Source: a virus (lineage: Duplodnaviria; Caudoviricetes). Taken from it: DNA of 64,000 nt. Each line of letters opens with the position of its first letter. Position 1 is the first letter of the stretch. The translations under genes and the position numbers were made by a program. This document shows, piece after piece, positions 2,331-64,000 of this stretch. The stretch spans positions 64,001 to 128,000 of IMG/VR virus record IMGVR_UViG_3300033463_000005, one strand, 5' to 3'. Under the pieces are notes generated by a model. The model saw nothing but the letters and a program-made list of their open reading frames with translations, was not told the DNA's origin and did not search any database.

Positions 2331-3905
2331 ATGAGTTTACATCTCATACCGGTGAAAACGGGAAGCGAACAGTTTCCCGTTTTCTACCAAAACTATTTAC
2401 CCAGTGCAGATAATTCATTAACATATGCAACTACGGTTGCACATAAGACACTATATACCGCCAGTGTACTACGTGCCAGTATTCTCACAGAACAACCAAT
2501 CTTGACTGAAGGAAGTATTAATGGTACAAGTGGACAAGATATTGTGGTGACAGATGATACGCGTTATCGAACAGATTATATTCCATTGAATGCCGGTTCA
2601 TATCGCTTATCATGGATATTCCGTGCGGGTGCATCCGGTTCATCAGCATGGGTATTTAAATATGATTCAAATCATAATTTCATTGAGCGTGTTGGTAACA
2701 GTGGTTCTACCATGACATTCACAACATCTGTCAACGGATATATTCGAATTGTGTGGTATTATAATGGTTCTGCATTCTATTCATCCGATATTCATGATAT
2801 TACATTGACAAATTCCGCAACAAATGGCACAAGTTGTTATGTATATGCATTGAATTTATTGACATGGAATCGTCGATTGATGGGTATCATTCCATATACA
2901 CAAATTGATTCTCGTTCAATTGGATCCATTCTTGTAGATGATAATTTTGTATATTTGTCATCGATATCCAATGCAACAAAGATTTACAAATTCAAATTAT
3001 CTGATTTGAGTTTTGTAGAATCATATACATATGCAGCATCAACTGGTCCAAATGCATATGGAAAAATGCAATGGGTAAATGATCATACAATCTGTATGGC
3101 ATATGTAAATGGATTTATCTTTTTTGACACATCGACAAATCAATTCACATATGCAGATTCCGGAGCATCATATGCAATTCAAGATTTTGCAGTTGGTACG
3201 AATTGTATTGTAGGTTGCCGAAATTCAACCGGTTCAAATTGTATCATGATATATGATATGACATTACAGACATTTTCATATTTATCACCGACATCAACAA
3301 ATCAATGTGTTGTATGTTATGATTCTGGAAAATTCTATATTGCAAATGCTGCATATTTGTATATCATGGACGAATCAACTGAATTGATTGATCGAACATT
3401 GGTTATGTCATGGACACGTCCAAGAAACATTTGCATTACCAATCAAACTGTATTTGTTGCATGCACATCTAGTGAGCGTTTGTTCATATATGATATTGAA
3501 CACGAGGTACATTCATCCACATATTTACAGTGGACGGTGAGTGATTTTGCTTCTTCATATACCGATGTCCCGTCGTCATTCAATGGATGGTACTTTTATC
3601 AAAAACAAACATTGTTGATGTTGCATGATCCTGGTTATTCCAAATATAACTTTGGACCAAAGATGGATTCACTCGGAATCATGTATAATCTCAGCACAGC
3701 AAATCATTTCACATATGATCATTCATGTATTGAATTTCATGATACATATGTGACGATACATGATAAAACAATTACCAAATCAGCAGCTGAATATGATTCA
3801 GAAAATCACATCAAACGTATTATTATGAATAAATCGGAATACAATGTCATGAAGAAATCCAAAATCAATTATCATCAAGAGGAAGGAGATGATAACCATG
3901 AATGA
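2331..3905 (+). CDS. Tail/baseplate-associated beta-propeller-like protein with a small carbohydrate-binding-like insert
   Basis: RBS GAGGTGA; S/T/Y/N-rich beta-type sequence; segment RYRTDYIPLNAGSYRLSW...TFTTSVNGYIRIVW resembles CBM-like modules of phage fibres. Confidence 0.5.
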   Translation: MSLHLIPVKTGSEQFPVFYQNYLPSADNSLTYATTVAHKTLYTASVLRASILTEQPILTEGSINGTSGQDIVVTDDTRYRTDYIPLNAGSYRLSWIFRAGASGSSAWVFKYDSNHNFIERVGNSGSTMTFTTSVNGYIRIVWYYNGSAFYSSDIHDITLTNSATNGTSCYVYALNLLTWNRRLMGIIPYTQIDSRSIGSILVDDNFVYLSSISNATKIYKFKLSDLSFVESYTYAASTGPNAYGKMQWVNDHTICMAYVNGFIFFDTSTNQFTYADSGASYAIQDFAVGTNCIVGCRNSTGSNCIMIYDMTLQTFSYLSPTSTNQCVVCYDSGKFYIANAAYLYIMDESTELIDRTLVMSWTRPRNICITNQTVFVACTSSERLFIYDIEHEVHSSTYLQWTVSDFASSYTDVPSSFNGWYFYQKQTLLMLHDPGYSKYNFGPKMDSLGIMYNLSTANHFTYDHSCIEFHDTYVTIHDKTITKSAAEYDSENHIKRIIMNKSEYNVMKKSKINYHQEEGDDNHE

Positions 3906-30100: not shown

Positions 30101-33100
30101 TCAGCCTACCGATAACCGTTCTACTTGTTTCGGTATGTCGTTATCCTGGAATTCACCATCCAGTTTTCTTCTTGGAGGTTTTGTTGAGAGTTGTTGCTGT
30201 TTACGTTGTTGATTCCGTTCTTTCATCAGTTTCAGCATATCGCTCAACATGGTTTCAATCTGAACAGAACGAACATTGAATGTGTGATCCATAATCCGTT
30301 TCACATTCTCTGTCATATCTGTCGTTGCTGATTGACGATATCTGTTGACAATCACTGGTTGTTGTGATTGCATATCAGATGAATACTGGAATAACTCGTC
30401 GATGTTATTCAGCGGCGGGATATCTTGTTGGATGATGGATGACATATCACCATTTGCAACGGTTGTCGTCATGGTTGATTCGAATTTCGTATTGACGTCC
30501 GGATTCACAAGACCATGTTCAATACTACTTTCACCCGCAGATACCTCGACGTTTCGATTTGGATCCATATATCCCTGTGCTTTTGCTTCATCCAGATATC
30601 GTTCGCCATCTGATTTCTTCAAATATTTCAGAACAGTTTTTGCATTTTCGGAATTACCGACATTATACACATAATACTTGTCTTTGCCATATGTGTACTC
30701 ATATACATCCGGATAGGTCTTACGGAATTCGCTATATGCAATGGATTGCTTCTTCAACTTATCATATTGCACAGCATTCATTGCAGATGCAATCGATTCA
30801 TTGTTTTCATCCGTAAGCGAATACATACCGCCACCATTTCCGTTGAATGTAACAGGAACACCCAATGTATATGAATAACTATCGGTTGGAATCACGATGG
30901 AAGACGGACCATTCTCTGAATCAGATTCGTCCTCTCTCCATTTGAAGAATGTCATCGGGTTCAATTTTGTTTGTGACGCACCATCTTTGATCGTGTAGTG
31001 TAAGTGTGCACCAGTTGAGTGACCAGTGCTACCGACTCTACCAACAACTTGACCACCTTGAATCTTATCACCTGGGTTGAGAGAGGTCTTCATACCAGCG
31101 ACATATGTGTATGGTAATTCAGACAAATGGTAGTAATGGTGCTCATCTCCACCAGAGTCTTTCCAAATCAACGTGTTACCAGTTGATTTATCCCAGCTTG
31201 AAGAAGCTGTTCTAACAGTACCACCAGTCGTTGCAACGACTTCTGGTGTACGATCAGAAGACCACAAGAAGTCAATACCGCTGTGATCACTACCAGTTGT
31301 ACCTTGACCTTGACGGTTTGGTGTTTGACGCTTACGGAACCAGTGACCAATGTTACCAGAAGACCAAGCCTTATTGGATCTACCGGAGCCATTTGTCATT
31401 GTGAAGAATTCATGCAACGGAGATTCTGATGTTGCTCCAGTCTGTGGAATATTTGGTTCGAATATTGAAGGTGTATACACATCCGTCGCGAGTTTCGCAC
31501 CACGATCGGAGAAGAAACCTGTACCAGATACTTCAACATTATTACCAGTCAATGCCGTTGTCATTTGATCGATAAACGAACCCGCGGAAGAATCAGCAGC
31601 GGATAACGCATCTGTCATACCGGAAATGATACCACCTGTCGGATTTCCATTTTCATCCGTTTCACCAATTGCAGTCTTCATGAATGAACTGAATGATTCA
31701 GAATCTGTGTTTGCTTGTTTCTTCAACCGTTCAGTTGCAGCTTTTGCATAATATGTATTAATATTCTTTTGGAATCGTTTCTCATATTCTGCATCAGACT
31801 CACCGGCATATTTTGAATTTTCCTTCTTAAAGATTTCTCGTGCTTCTTGTTCCAATTTGATACGATCATTTTCATCCATATTACTCAAATCGATACCAGC
31901 ATCTTGTAACGCTTTCTGATTCTTGGCGTTCTTCTGTTCTTCATTCAATGAAGACTCCATGTCACTTTCACCGATGAAGATTGATACAAGCTGACCAACG
32001 ATATCTTTCAGATTACCCAAAGCATCCTGAATTGTATCAGAGAATTCAATTGGAGAATCACCAGAACCGTATAGACCCATTAGCGAGCTGGAAGCAAGGG
32101 ATGATGCAGACTTCCGTTCGATTCGTCCAGTTAAAGGATTGGAAACGATCGCCATTCCATTGGATGTACCCAACACGTTCATGTAGTGATTATTGCCTCT
32201 CCGTGTTGAGAAATCTGGACCGGAACCAACAACGGTGATTGGATTACTCGGTGATGCCATCGACAATGAACGCTGCGTCACACCACCAGGAGTCAGATTC
32301 ATACCAAGTGCTCTTGATGTATTCATGTATCCACGAACTGATGTTCCGTTGGATGCATCATATGCACCAGCGTTTGACATGGATACTGCCAATCGACGTG
32401 CATCCAATGTATTACCAGTGCGACGTGCATACGCATCCGTCAATGCCACAGGTCCACATCCACGTTGTGCCATATTCATATATGCACCATAACGTGCCTG
32501 TGCACCATCACCAGCATAAATGTCTCCACTTGCAACGATACCATCCATTGGTGAGCCATTCAATTGTGGAATTGTCTTTGATGCTTGAACTTGTTGCTCT
32601 TGTTTGTCTTCCTGTTCGACACTACTTTTTCCAGTAATCGCATTACCAAGCATCGTAACAGTTTTACCGAATCCAGATTTCATGGAACCCCAACCAGAAG
32701 AAACCATTGATGTTCCCATGCTAATCATGTTCTTGCCGGTTTCATACAGAGAAGGAGCACCAAAGATCTTACCAATGACACCAACAGCTGTTAGAATACC
32801 ACCGAGAACAGTTAAGATGAGACCCATACCAACTTGGACAATACCAAGTATGATTTCCAATGTATTCGCAACAGTCTGAAGAATTGGTACAACAACTTCC
32901 TTCATGACAGATACCAGTGGAATCATGATCAATTTCACAAGACCAGTGATCAATTCCAGAATCGGTTCCAGCACACTCAACAGCTGTTCAATGATTGGTC
33001 CAATTGCTTCCAGAATTGGTTGAATGATCTTGATGACGGATTCGACAATCTGCACAACATATCCAACAATTTGACGAAGAACCTTTGTGATTGTTGTGAC

Positions 33101-61116: not shown

Positions 61117-61860
61117 ATGCGACGAACGAAATGCATGTTCTGTCCAAAGATATTTGATGATAAACATAAGTATTGTCATCATGTCGCATCTCAGCATAAT
61201 GATCAGATCCCAGAAGATCAGGAACCATTAGAATTTGCATATTCGTTGTTGGTCCATAAACCAACTGGAAGATCGTGTGTGATTTGTCGCAAGAATCCGG
61301 TCAACTTCAATCAACAAACGTTGAAGTATGACCGGATTTGCGATAATCCGCAGTGTAAAGAAGAATATGTGAAATTAATGAAAGCGCGAATGGTTCGTGT
61401 ACATGGACAAGAACATTTGTTGAATGATGCGGATATGCAACGAAAGATGTTGTATAACAATCACAATGCACGTGATTTCATTTGGGATGCGGATCATAAG
61501 TTCCGTGTGATCGGTACATATGAAGAAGACTTCCTAAAGAAACTGCGTTCGATCGGTTGGAGTCCAAATGATGTGATTGCGCCATCACCAAACAATTATT
61601 GGTATAAATGGAAAGATGGAACGTTGCATCTTTACATACCCGATTTCTACATTCCATCATTGTCATTGGAAGTTGAAATCAAAGAATCCGATAACAAACA
61701 CCCAAGAATGGAACATGAACGCGAAATGGAAGCATTGAAAGATAAACGATTACATGATGAAGAAAAGAAAACCAATATTCATTACATCAAAATCGTTGAT
61801 AAGAACTACGATGAATTCATTCGCGATTATGTGAAGTCTGATGAAAATAAACCAGAATAA
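61117..61860 (+). CDS. Zinc-finger PD-(D/E)XK endonuclease
   Basis: C2H2 finger CMFC...HVASQH, CVIC...CDNPQC, YIPDFY...EVEIKE. Confidence 0.7.
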   Translation: MRRTKCMFCPKIFDDKHKYCHHVASQHNDQIPEDQEPLEFAYSLLVHKPTGRSCVICRKNPVNFNQQTLKYDRICDNPQCKEEYVKLMKARMVRVHGQEHLLNDADMQRKMLYNNHNARDFIWDADHKFRVIGTYEEDFLKKLRSIGWSPNDVIAPSPNNYWYKWKDGTLHLYIPDFYIPSLSLEVEIKESDNKHPRMEHEREMEALKDKRLHDEEKKTNIHYIKIVDKNYDEFIRDYVKSDENKPE

Positions 61861-61876
61861 CAAAGGAGGATTTATT

Positions 61877-62050
61877 ATGCCAAAAAAGAATACGATTTTT
61901 TCTTCTTCTACAGAAAAGAAGGAGACAAAGACAAGAAAAAAGAAAACTGAAGTCAAAGAAGAAGAATCATTGGAACTTTCTGCTGAAATGGATGAAGAAC
62001 TCTCCAATGGTCTCGGTGATGATGAAGAGGAAGATGGTGAATCTGTATGA
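61877..62050 (+). CDS. Small basic/acidic protein
   Basis: RBS AAAGGAGG before ATG 61877; K-rich N-half, E/D-rich C-half. Confidence 0.55.
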   Translation: MPKKNTIFSSSTEKKETKTRKKKTEVKEEESLELSAEMDEELSNGLGDDEEEDGESV

Positions 62051-63051
62051 ATGAATTATTAACATATATTGATCAAATCGATACTGCATCATGTATTGCA
62101 GAAATGGAAACACTGAATGCATTATGTGATTCCTATATAAAAGCATCGATGATTATTGAAGCTGTCGATGAATCTACAGACACATCATCGTTTAGTATTT
62201 TCCAAGAACTAAATACTGATACACTTAAAGATGCATTTAGAAATTTCATGTATACCGATGGAACTATGCCGCATGGAAAACCCGGAGAAAGTGTTGTAAA
62301 AAAGATACTATTATTCATTCCGAGATTGTTTTTGATGTTTTTACGACAGCTAATGAAGCTTGTCGTCTTCATAGTAGGTCATTTAGTGGATGACATAATA
62401 TCTATAAAAGATGATAAATATCGGTATCTCCCGATTGATCCAGAGGTATTTCGATCCGATATACTTAATCAGATTGATAATTTAATTAGTCTATTTAAAG
62501 ATGTGCATGAACATGTACCGAATAACTGTGACTCACCAGCGAAATATTATTCGATATTAGTCTCGACGGTTATTGATCTGACTAATGGGTTCGAAATACC
62601 AACAGTGAATGGCAAAATGAAAAATGCTACAATGGAAATTGCATTAGACGAGTTCGCTAAATATTTAAAGCAGTATGACGATGGAGGTTCAAAACACAAA
62701 AAACTGTTTAAAGAAACCAAAGAAAATTCACCACAGTCACAGGAATATACCTCTAAGCTAATGAAAAAATCATATCACAATACAGTTAGAGAATTGAAAA
62801 ATCTCATAAAAAGACTTAATTATGTGAATAAAAATTTCAAACAACAATATGAACAAGATGAAGCTATGGGTGATGCATATCGTGCAGTAAATAAAATGCG
62901 ATCTAACCTAGCATATATTCTTCAATTTTTGGCAAAGATTTCTACTACGTGTACAGAATATTCCAATAAACATAAATTGAATGAATATAAAGATTCATAT
63001 CGCTATGATTCTGCTGAATTTGATGATGACTACAACGAGGAGGAATCTTAA
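62047..63051 (+). CDS. Internal head protein, shared-leader family
   Basis: MNELLTYIDQIDTASCIAEMETLNALCDSYIKASMIIEA...SIFQE-L then GKPGESVVKKILLFIPRL. Confidence 0.7.
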   Translation: MNELLTYIDQIDTASCIAEMETLNALCDSYIKASMIIEAVDESTDTSSFSIFQELNTDTLKDAFRNFMYTDGTMPHGKPGESVVKKILLFIPRLFLMFLRQLMKLVVFIVGHLVDDIISIKDDKYRYLPIDPEVFRSDILNQIDNLISLFKDVHEHVPNNCDSPAKYYSILVSTVIDLTNGFEIPTVNGKMKNATMEIALDEFAKYLKQYDDGGSKHKKLFKETKENSPQSQEYTSKLMKKSYHNTVRELKNLIKRLNYVNKNFKQQYEQDEAMGDAYRAVNKMRSNLAYILQFLAKISTTCTEYSNKHKLNEYKDSYRYDSAEFDDDYNEEES

Positions 63052-64000
63052 TGGCCAATTATACAAATTCTCCATTGGTTGAATACACACATATTTCTCC
63101 ATACAGAAATTCTCCACGTAATCAACCAATCACAAAAATTACATGGCATCACACTGCAGGTGTGTGTTCATTGGAACAGTTCGATGAAATTGTTCATCGT
63201 CCCGGAAGAAACATGTCTTCCAATTACATGGTCGACAAAGATGCTCGCGTTGGACTCTTCTGCCCAGAGTCTGATCGTTGCTGGTGTTCGTCATCTTCGT
63301 GGAATGATAACAGAGCGGTTGTATTGGAAATATCCAACTCCAAGAGTGGTGGAGATTGGCCTATCTCTGATAAAGTATATCAGAAGTGTATTGAACTGAC
63401 CGTGGATATCTGCAAACGAAATGGAATTAAAAAATTAACATTTACCGGTGACAAGAATGGATCTTTGACATTCCATCGTTTTTACGCCGCAACTGGATGT
63501 GTTCCCACTACAACAACAGAACTGCTCACACCGACAGGTTGGAAATCCATTGGGGATATCCAAGTTGGTGACACTATTATGACAGTTGATCCAAAAACAT
63601 TGGATATGAAATTTGATACTGTCGAGAATTTGACAAATAAACACATTGATGATGTTTACACTGTCAGGGGAATGTCAGTCACAAAGGAACATCGTGTGTT
63701 ATGTCATACATCCGATGATATGACAACCATTGGATATCAATTCAAATCATTTGATGAGTTGAAAGATAAGTCATATCGAATTCCTGTTGCTGGATATACA
63801 ACCAATGCCGGAATTGAAATGACATCTTCTGAAATGGTATTTCTGTTGAGATATCAATGGCATGGTACATTGTTAGATGACGGAACTGTTTCATTTGTAT
63901 TCGTAAATGAAAATCAACTTGGATACATGCGTACATTATTGACAAACATTGGATACAAATTCGATACAGAACGCGATGATCTCGGTCCAGTTCATGTATA
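63051..64000 (+). CDS. N-acetylmuramoyl-L-alanine amidase (Amidase_2) endolysin interrupted by an intein; 3' partial
   Basis: Manual translation from ATG 63051 (coupled TAATG), open to the window end: KITWHHTAG, SSNY, DRCWCSSS, NDNRAVVLEISN, LTVDICKRNGI, LTFHRFYAATG-C. Confidence 0.88.
   Translation, partial: MANYTNSPLVEYTHISPYRNSPRNQPITKITWHHTAGVCSLEQFDEIVHRPGRNMSSNYMVDKDARVGLFCPESDRCWCSSSSWNDNRAVVLEISNSKSGGDWPISDKVYQKCIELTVDICKRNGIKKLTFTGDKNGSLTFHRFYAATGCVPTTTTELLTPTGWKSIGDIQVGDTIMTVDPKTLDMKFDTVENLTNKHIDDVYTVRGMSVTKEHRVLCHTSDDMTTIGYQFKSFDELKDKSYRIPVAGYTTNAGIEMTSSEMVFLLRYQWHGTLLDDGTVSFVFVNENQLGYMRTLLTNIGYKFDTERDDLGPVHV
63498..64000 (+). mobile_element. Intein (Hint domain plus degenerate LAGLIDADG-like region), 3' partial
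   Basis: Block A CVPTTTTELLTPTGWKSIGDIQVGD; block B SVTKEHRV (TxxH); YRIPVAG then FLLRYQWHGTL at the block C position. Confidence 0.8.

Follow-up and report, generated by a model that had tools for sequence, protein, structure and literature searches.

Inteins are known mainly from proteins of replication, repair, packaging and nucleotide metabolism. The Amidase_2 enzymes that have been solved or come from cultured phages, among them T7 lysozyme (1lba), PlyL (1yb0), XlyA (3rdr) and the amidase-2 domain of LysGH15 (4ols), are all uninterrupted. In the mycobacteriophages, all of the 224 Lysin A genes surveyed are free of inteins (PMC3314691), and a survey of mycobacteriophage inteins reported none in a lysin (PMC5050341). 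Our literature search for an intein in an endolysin, amidase, lysin or peptidoglycan hydrolase, with most subscription journals and InBase outside its coverage, likewise found no report. Here, we analyse a lysin gene that runs off the end of a 64,000-nucleotide stretch of DNA (the window), bases 64001-128000 of a 258,509-bp viral record (IMGVR_UViG_3300033463_000005; CheckV completeness estimate, 96%). Its spliced product would share the Amidase_2 family and the His...His-x7-Cys pattern of the four enzymes named above, but unlike them this lysin is interrupted, at the Cys of that pattern, by a 298-residue insert. We conclude, at a probability of roughly 0.78, that the insert is a true intein, containing a LAGLIDADG-type endonuclease domain, which resides as a selfish element in the endolysin of an uncultured jumbo phage and splices to give active lysin.

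A lysin gene with an in-frame insert

The lysin open reading frame (ORF) begins at ATG 63051, is still open where the window ends and, read on into the continuation of the genome, reaches a total of 688 aa (L001:1501-3567). The frame is unbroken across these 688 residues, which divide into an N-extein (1-149), the intein (150-447, 298 aa) and a C-extein (448-688), with splice junctions between G149 and C150 and between N447 and C448. The intein extends from window position 63498 to a would-be position 64391 (L001:1948-2841), 391 bases past the window, and its GC content of 37.5% is similar to that of the surrounding DNA. The initial annotation had pointed to an Amidase_2 ORF carrying H33, the Glu of an LEISN motif (E93) and H142, and to intein blocks A and B in the sequence from C150 to VTKEH; all of these residues are present, C150 being followed by VPTTTTELLTPTGWKSIGDIQVGD and VTKEH occupying residues 210-214. 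A terminal (H)N followed by C-P-G had been anticipated further downstream. The C-terminal junction reads ...KSGAFLMRQNGYTTITGN447/C448PGEYIYSRAQ... (here and below, slashes mark junctions), so that the Asn and the C-P-G were correctly foreseen, but the penultimate residue is Gly, not His. Beyond this junction, the C-extein contains the third zinc ligand, the last amidase helix and a Pro-rich linker, and its tail consists of probable SH3b-like wall-binding repeats (Atlas score 0.88, a lead only). The features of the gene are listed below.

63039..63043, + strand: Shine-Dalgarno-like GGAGG, 7 nt 5' of the lysin ATG, from direct sequence reading
63051..63497, + strand: N-extein, residues 1-149, with most of the Amidase_2 catalytic domain (zinc ligands H33 and H142, conserved E93), from PF01510, phrog_7698 and the columns invariant in intein-free relatives
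63498..64000, + strand: intein, the first 168 of its 298 residues (C150-N447), from the located junctions, the AlphaFold2 model and Foldseek matches
63498..63500, + strand: intein Cys1 codon (protein C150), Cys in 116 of 116 homologues and 8 residues past H142, the position taken by the zinc-ligand Cys after splicing
63681..63692, + strand: intein block B T-K-E-H (protein T211-H214; intein T62 = B:7, H65 = B:10), from column conservation
63840..63866, + strand: first LAGLIDADG motif in the degenerate form FLLRYQWHG, with His for the metal-binding Asp, from column analysis and fold matches
Beyond the window, L001 up to 2841: rest of the endonuclease domain, block F with C426 (F:4) and block G with T445-G446-N447
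Beyond the window, L001:2842-3564, stop 3565-3567: C-extein, C448-L688

The amidase domain and its zinc-ligand site

Pfam Amidase_2 (PF01510) matches residues 24-130 with an E-value (E) of 5e-14 (53.3 bits against a cut-off of 26), and the match, which covers profile positions 2-114, ends at position 114 of 131, just ahead of the insert. In the intein-free relative P0123 (392 aa), the same profile is matched over positions 2-131 of 131, ending at residue 154, right after C151-P-G. The N-extein matches the PHROG endolysin family phrog_7698 (E 2.7e-36) as well as annotated endolysins of Faecalibacterium, Ruminococcus, Acutalibacteraceae and Streptococcus phages. The relatives of the exteins point to gut Bacillota as the probable hosts. 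A search with the C-extein returned 420 homologues, mostly intein-free lysins of 377-392 aa, and in 96 of 120 proteins of 132-422 aa found in this way the H-x7-CPG motif is uninterrupted at about residue 150. The correspondence extends to the flanking residues, as in the empty site HRFFAATA/CPGEYLF compared with HRFYAATG/.../CPGEYIY in this lysin. One candidate for an intein-free allele, P0079 (381 aa), was rejected, as it is an intein-bearing fragment cut by the contig end.

The columns corresponding to H33, E93, H142 and the Cys are all invariant in 37 intein-free amidase domains. A structural model of the intein-free amidase domain (predicted local distance difference test score, pLDDT, 89.7) aligns to XlyA, PlyL, LysGH15, AmpD, peptidoglycan recognition proteins and T7 lysozyme with Z of 13.7-18.6, and the structural alignment covers the Cys-containing region. 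Using hhalign against T7 lysozyme, the local register places TFH-x7-CPG on RAH-x7-CPS, corresponding to T7 H123 and C131 (His122 and Cys130 in the mature numbering, from which the initiator Met is dropped), in an alignment that, taken over its full length, does not reach significance (E 0.18). Among sequences of the Protein Data Bank (PDB), phmmer found no match to the N-extein, and the amidase family profile retrieved AmpDh2 only, in the middle of the domain. The assignment of the Cys of H-x7-C-P-G as the third zinc ligand, which C448 would supply after splicing, is well supported by these comparisons. Insertion at this Cys had been proposed at the outset, and it agrees with both the 96 intein-free lysins and the T7 register; the accompanying proposal that intein Cys1 itself sits at the ligand position in the precursor agrees, at the sequence level, with its distance of 8 residues from H142, the same spacing as between H123 and C131 of T7.

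As a plausible sequence of events, the 77-kDa precursor, having no correctly placed third ligand and a displaced last amidase helix, would probably be inactive. Splicing would remove the 34-kDa intein and join ...HRFYAATG to CPGEYIY..., giving a predicted zinc amidase of 390 aa and 43 kDa that ends in a wall-binding tail. Cys+1 would thereby play a double role, first as a splicing nucleophile and afterwards as a zinc ligand. The insertion site would be kept for selfish reasons, in that it offers an irreplaceable Cys as the +1 nucleophile together with a conserved DNA target, and splicing would presumably be constitutive.

Among the ten peptidoglycan-hydrolase families searched, the lysin gene is the only Amidase_2 match of the genome. 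The only other peptidoglycan-hydrolase match is to Peptidase_M23 (E 4e-18) at window 30977-31288 on the - strand, inside a 2190-aa ORF that probably encodes a virion-associated lysin and not an endolysin. Because the interrupted gene is the sole recognisable endolysin and the catalytic residues of its insert are invariant, the intein most likely splices in this phage.

Predicted fold of the insert

Sequence models give a faint signal for the insert: Pfam Hint_2 matches it at E 0.03 over block A only, the NCBIfam models do not match it, and a search of the genome with Pfam LAGLIDADG_3 was negative. The weak sequence matches in the PDB nevertheless belong almost entirely to inteins or related domains: a single-sequence search with the insert returned, among others, the DnaB and RecA inteins and a bacterial intein-like (BIL) domain, and a profile of the intein family retrieved inteins at E 0.002-0.03 (RecA, AceL NrdHF at E 0.023, VMA) along with three unrelated aldolase chains. 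Using an alignment of 116 homologue inserts (48% mean column identity), AlphaFold2 produced a model of the insert with a pLDDT of 96.4 and a predicted template modelling score of 0.92. Foldseek matched this model to the endonuclease-bearing inteins TliVMA, PhoVMA, PI-SceI and PI-PfuI in the PDB at E 1e-10 to 2e-6, and further to the endonucleases I-Tsp061I, I-SceI and I-DmoI, the mini-inteins AceL NrdHF and Ssp DnaB, and a hedgehog Hint domain. The Hint fold expected from the initial annotation was thus recovered by structure, while the match by hidden Markov model (HMM) stayed weak. As modelled, the insert is a Hint splicing domain combined with a LAGLIDADG-type endonuclease domain. Chance is ruled out by this predicted intein fold and by the presence of the insert, in frame and at one and the same site, in 116 homologues.

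A BIL or terminal Hint autoprocessing domain, or a pseudogene, was considered and is ruled out by the intact, conserved frame, by Cys+1 and by the C-extein, which, contrary to what is found in a BIL-type domain, supplies the remainder of the amidase motif as well as the wall-binding region. No second copy of the intein family was found in the genome.

Splicing residues and intein class

In all 116 homologues, C1, H65 (B:10), C277 (F:4; protein C426), G297 (G:6; protein G446) and N298 are invariant, and the CPG that follows the Asn provides Cys+1 in every one of them; T62 (B:7) is kept in 115 of the 116. Position B:12 is Val or Ile, never Trp, and G:5 is Thr in 105 of 116. The invariant Cys at block F position 4 is a feature that the initial annotation did not include. 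Two common, non-obligatory features of inteins, a penultimate His and an Asp at F:4, are replaced here by G446 and C426. Working inteins that lack the penultimate His are documented (PMC5050341, PMC7664689), and a penultimate Gly is present in a working mycobacteriophage class 1 intein (PMC5050341). Cys F:4 together with Gly for the penultimate His is the signature of a large phage intein clade.

Class 3 inteins are defined by an absent N-terminal nucleophile and by the Trp-Cys-Thr triplet of Trp B:12, Cys F:4 and Thr G:5 (PMC2807308, PMC7891396). In the lysin intein, two of the three triplet positions are present (Cys F:4 and Thr G:5) and Trp B:12 is missing. Membership of class 3 is ruled out by the invariant Cys1 and the non-Trp B:12. 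Since both published definitions of class 3 exclude an N-terminal nucleophile, the lysin intein is class 1 by definition, and judged by its residues (Cys1, Thr B:7, His B:10, the terminal Asn and Cys+1) it is class 1 as well.

The endonuclease domain

The LAGLIDADG fold is present in the insert, as indicated by Foldseek matches to I-Tsp061I, I-SceI, I-DmoI and the endonuclease domains of PI-SceI and PI-PfuI. The domain derived from it comprises intein residues 96-262 (window 63783 onward; L001:2233-2733) and is never deleted in the 67 sequences of the clade to which this phage belongs. Its first motif reads FLLRYQWHG here (Q-W-H-G) and FLLEMQRIG in relatives of the same clade, in both cases without an acidic residue. 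The motif 1 Asp is found in 44 of the 116 homologues (LVAVQADG, with Q-A-D-G), and in this phage's clade the position is occupied by Ile, Val, His and other residues. Motif 2, H-E-D-G in this phage, is ambiguous as to the acidic residue. The endonuclease of the clade has probably lost its cutting activity.

Distribution and mobility of the intein

A search with the full-length protein returned 748 relatives. Among the best 120, all 116 that contain both junctions show the arrangement H-x7/C...GN/CPG, at extein identities down to 37%. Their inteins are mostly 290-309 aa long; four measure 223 aa, and P0105 is a 145-aa mini-intein from which the endonuclease domain is absent. On an extein tree of 205 tips, intein presence requires a minimum of 35 changes, compared with 66 on average (range 57-78) when the labels are shuffled; these counts are indicative only, as the intein-bearing and intein-free sets were drawn from different searches. 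The smaller number of changes compared with shuffled labels describes a distribution that is patchy but non-random.

The comparison with intein-free alleles that the initial annotation had called for can be made at close range in a sister group. In addition to the 96 lysins in which the same site is empty, five pairs of alleles with and without the intein have exteins that are 96.5-98.7% identical, and all five intein-bearing members come from the sister group with canonical LAGLIDADG motifs (LVAVQADG, ...QYDG). Because exteins with and without the intein are so nearly identical, the element has been mobile recently in this sister clade. The nearest intein-free allele to the lysin of this phage is only 58-63% identical. 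The intein-bearing neighbours of this lysin share 92% identity with it in the N-extein but only 54-58% in the intein. On our reading of these comparisons, the intein would still be mobile in the sister clade, and in the clade of this phage it would be fixed and vertically inherited, with an endonuclease that is probably inactive.

Outside these close relatives, the intein profile retrieves 8336 representatives at E <= 0.001 from a library of 1.84 billion proteins, 201 of them at E <= 1e-30, and the junction H-x7/C...GN/CP is found in 71 of the 100 best full-length representative matches. Four hosts sampled among those with the H-x7/C junction are all Amidase_2 proteins, one combined with CHAP, one with SH3_5 and one with glucosaminidase and SPOR domains. 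Judging from these sequence comparisons, the lysin intein is one member of a very large lysin-intein family. One amidase appears to carry two inteins. In P0242, an intein of the family that has Ser+1 immediately follows the first zinc-ligand His of an Amidase_2 domain; other sites include the position after a TAWH motif (P0325), Amidase_5 (P0321), the small subunit of ribonucleotide reductase (RNR) and DNA polymerase A. The proteins P0241, P0242, P0321 and P0325 are metagenomic relatives with related inteins at other lysin sites. In 50,697 GenBank phage records, none covering at least 80% of the whole 688-aa protein was found, and among the best 40 of 110 records with relatives of the intein these occur only in RNR, NAMPT and primase/helicase genes, at identities of 28% or less.

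Alternative explanations

Several points weigh against a selfish intein that splices normally. Standard intein HMMs barely detect the insert (Hint_2 at E 0.03, none from NCBIfam), and the zinc-ligand assignment draws on family membership, on invariant columns and on the local register of an alignment that falls short of significance overall (E 0.18). With no penultimate His, and with Cys where F:4 normally has Asp, the intein departs from textbook class 1 chemistry, which makes the route and the rate of splicing uncertain. Within the clade, despite its lost catalytic residue, the endonuclease-derived domain shows a conservation equal to that of the splicing domain (53% versus 48-60% pairwise identity); this pattern is not what a purely decaying selfish element would predict, and it hints that the domain keeps a structural or new role. 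The same departures, namely the absent penultimate His, the degenerate endonuclease motif and the weak or silent curated HMMs, could also be taken to mean that the element no longer splices, leaving a dead lysin or a Hint domain that merely cleaves and releases fragments. We regard this as very improbable, given that every catalytic position is invariant in 116 diverged homologues, that the exteins are in frame and conserved, the N-extein being 92% identical to that of its nearest relatives, and that the genome, 96% complete by estimate, yielded no further endolysin-type gene. A different departure from the class 1 route would have C426 attack first and carry the N-extein as a branched thioester to Cys+1, with Cys1 dispensable or auxiliary. 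Such a class 3-type route would fit the invariance of Cys F:4 in 116 of 116 homologues and the Thr at G:5 in 105 of them, and variants that start with Pro (P0304, P0312 and P0322) in the same family and at the same amidase H-x7 site keep Cys F:4, which makes them candidate class 3 members beside the members with Cys1. The best mini-intein by fold, AceL NrdHF, is itself class 3 (TM-score 0.68-0.70 over the target) and likewise has a non-Trp B:12 and no penultimate His (PMC7891396). Cys1, however, is invariant in the 116 close homologues and kept in almost all of about 130 wider representatives, which argues for its use; the published definitions require that the N-terminal nucleophile be absent (PMC2807308, PMC7891396), and B:12 is Val or Ile instead of Trp, so that we consider this route unlikely.

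The initial annotation had also raised a metal- or redox-gated switch on lysis, in which conditional splicing would act as a timer: Cys1, partnered by H33 and H142 or by Cys F:4, would bind zinc or form a disulfide and block the first acyl shift. The endolysin would then mature only under a particular metal or redox state, and a fixed intein with a dead endonuclease would represent a domesticated regulator. The spacing of Cys1, 8 residues past H142 like the mature ligand, is compatible with such gating, as are the three cysteines C1, F:4 and +1, invariant in the 116 homologues, which meet His B:10 in the splicing active site. There is a precedent in the Mycobacterium smegmatis DnaB intein, where zinc bound at the F:4 Cys blocks splicing and peroxide locks that residue into a disulfide (PMC7360933). 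The intein is moreover fixed in this clade, and its endonuclease-derived domain is conserved without the catalytic Asp. Against gating stands the typical placement of inteins at essential active-site residues for selfish reasons (PMC5050341), and the selfish-element explanation accounts for the insertion site equally well. In the sister clade, the intein is present in some lysins and absent from others that are nearly identical, which indicates that the lysin does not need it. Endolysins that lack a signal peptide are, in addition, already held back by the holin. A zinc or redox switch on lysis, chemically plausible by analogy, is speculation, and conditional splicing as a lysis timer seems to us distinctly improbable. 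Slightly more doubtful again is the fuller proposal for the jumbo-phage clade, in which the intein would be domesticated, fixed in every allele, with its endonuclease dead but conserved, and would serve as a post-translational timer; and the same grade applies to its detailed form, in which Cys1, possibly with Cys F:4, and the zinc-ligand His of the extein would hold zinc or a disulfide until the only endolysin matures at a late-infection change of metal or redox state. The selfish, splicing intein is our preferred explanation.

Neighbouring genes

The start codon of the lysin overlaps the stop of the upstream gene (TAATG). This gene (window 62047-63051, + strand) encodes 334 aa with no Pfam or PHROG match, and the overlap suggests co-transcription, and possibly coupled translation, of the two genes. 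Two genes 5' of the lysin, a 247-aa ORF (window 61117-61860, + strand) matches the PHROG 'endonuclease' family phrog_15137 (E 3e-40) and Pfam DUF7487, and may be a free-standing homing-type endonuclease. The 3' side (L005:1985-6114; genome 129985-134114) encodes a protein of 618 aa, whose match is family B polymerase exonuclease-like, together with DNA gyrase/topoisomerase IV subunit A; the lysin therefore adjoins replication genes.

Significance and comparison with known inteins

The locus adds a phage lysis enzyme, entered at a metal ligand, to the range of intein hosts, and it has many counterparts. Within the family, inteins with an intact endonuclease, inteins with a degenerate one, mini-inteins, Pro1 variants and empty alleles form a natural series, which lends itself to work on the homing cycle of inteins and on the passage between class 1 and class 3 chemistry. 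The interrupted lysins would be natural "pro-lysins" whose activation depends on splicing, useful for tests of conditional splicing and for the engineering of switchable lysins.

In its two-domain layout, the lysin intein resembles TliVMA, PhoVMA, PI-SceI and PI-PfuI (PDB 7qsu, 7qst, 1vde and 1dq3; TM-score 0.54-0.65 over the query), with which it has in common Cys1, the block B T-x-x-H, the terminal Asn and a +1 nucleophile. Identity to these inteins is only 8-13%, however, and the host is a peptidoglycan amidase, not an ATPase, polymerase or RNR; unlike them, the lysin intein has a penultimate Gly, a Cys at F:4 and a motif 1 without an acidic residue. M. smegmatis DnaB intein 1 (PMC7360933, PMC6195587) has a catalytic Cys F:4, as the lysin intein does, and with its zinc binding and reversible disulfide it is the precedent for gating, but it belongs to class 3, lacks Cys1, has Ser+1 and resides in a helicase.

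Two inteins from phages or phage-like DNA are close in particular residues. The AceL NrdHF split intein, which comes from a phage-like contig of metagenomic origin (PDB 6zgq; Hoffmann et al. 2020, PMC7891396), shares with the lysin intein Cys F:4, Thr G:5, a non-Trp B:12 (Met in AceL, Val here) and the absence of a penultimate His. In contrast to the lysin intein, it has Ala1, is naturally split, lacks an endonuclease domain, resides in an RNR beta subunit and follows a class 3 mechanism that has been shown experimentally, whereas the lysin intein is contiguous and has an invariant Cys1. The intein of Mycobacteriophage Bethlehem gp51, the recombination directionality factor (Kelley et al. 2016, PMC5050341), is, like the one described here, a class 1 intein of a phage and has Gly in the penultimate position. 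It adjoins a conserved motif of a metallophosphoesterase domain, and changing its Gly to His caused precursor accumulation (PMC5050341); the host protein and the phage group of this and other mycobacteriophage class 1 inteins differ from those of the lysin intein.

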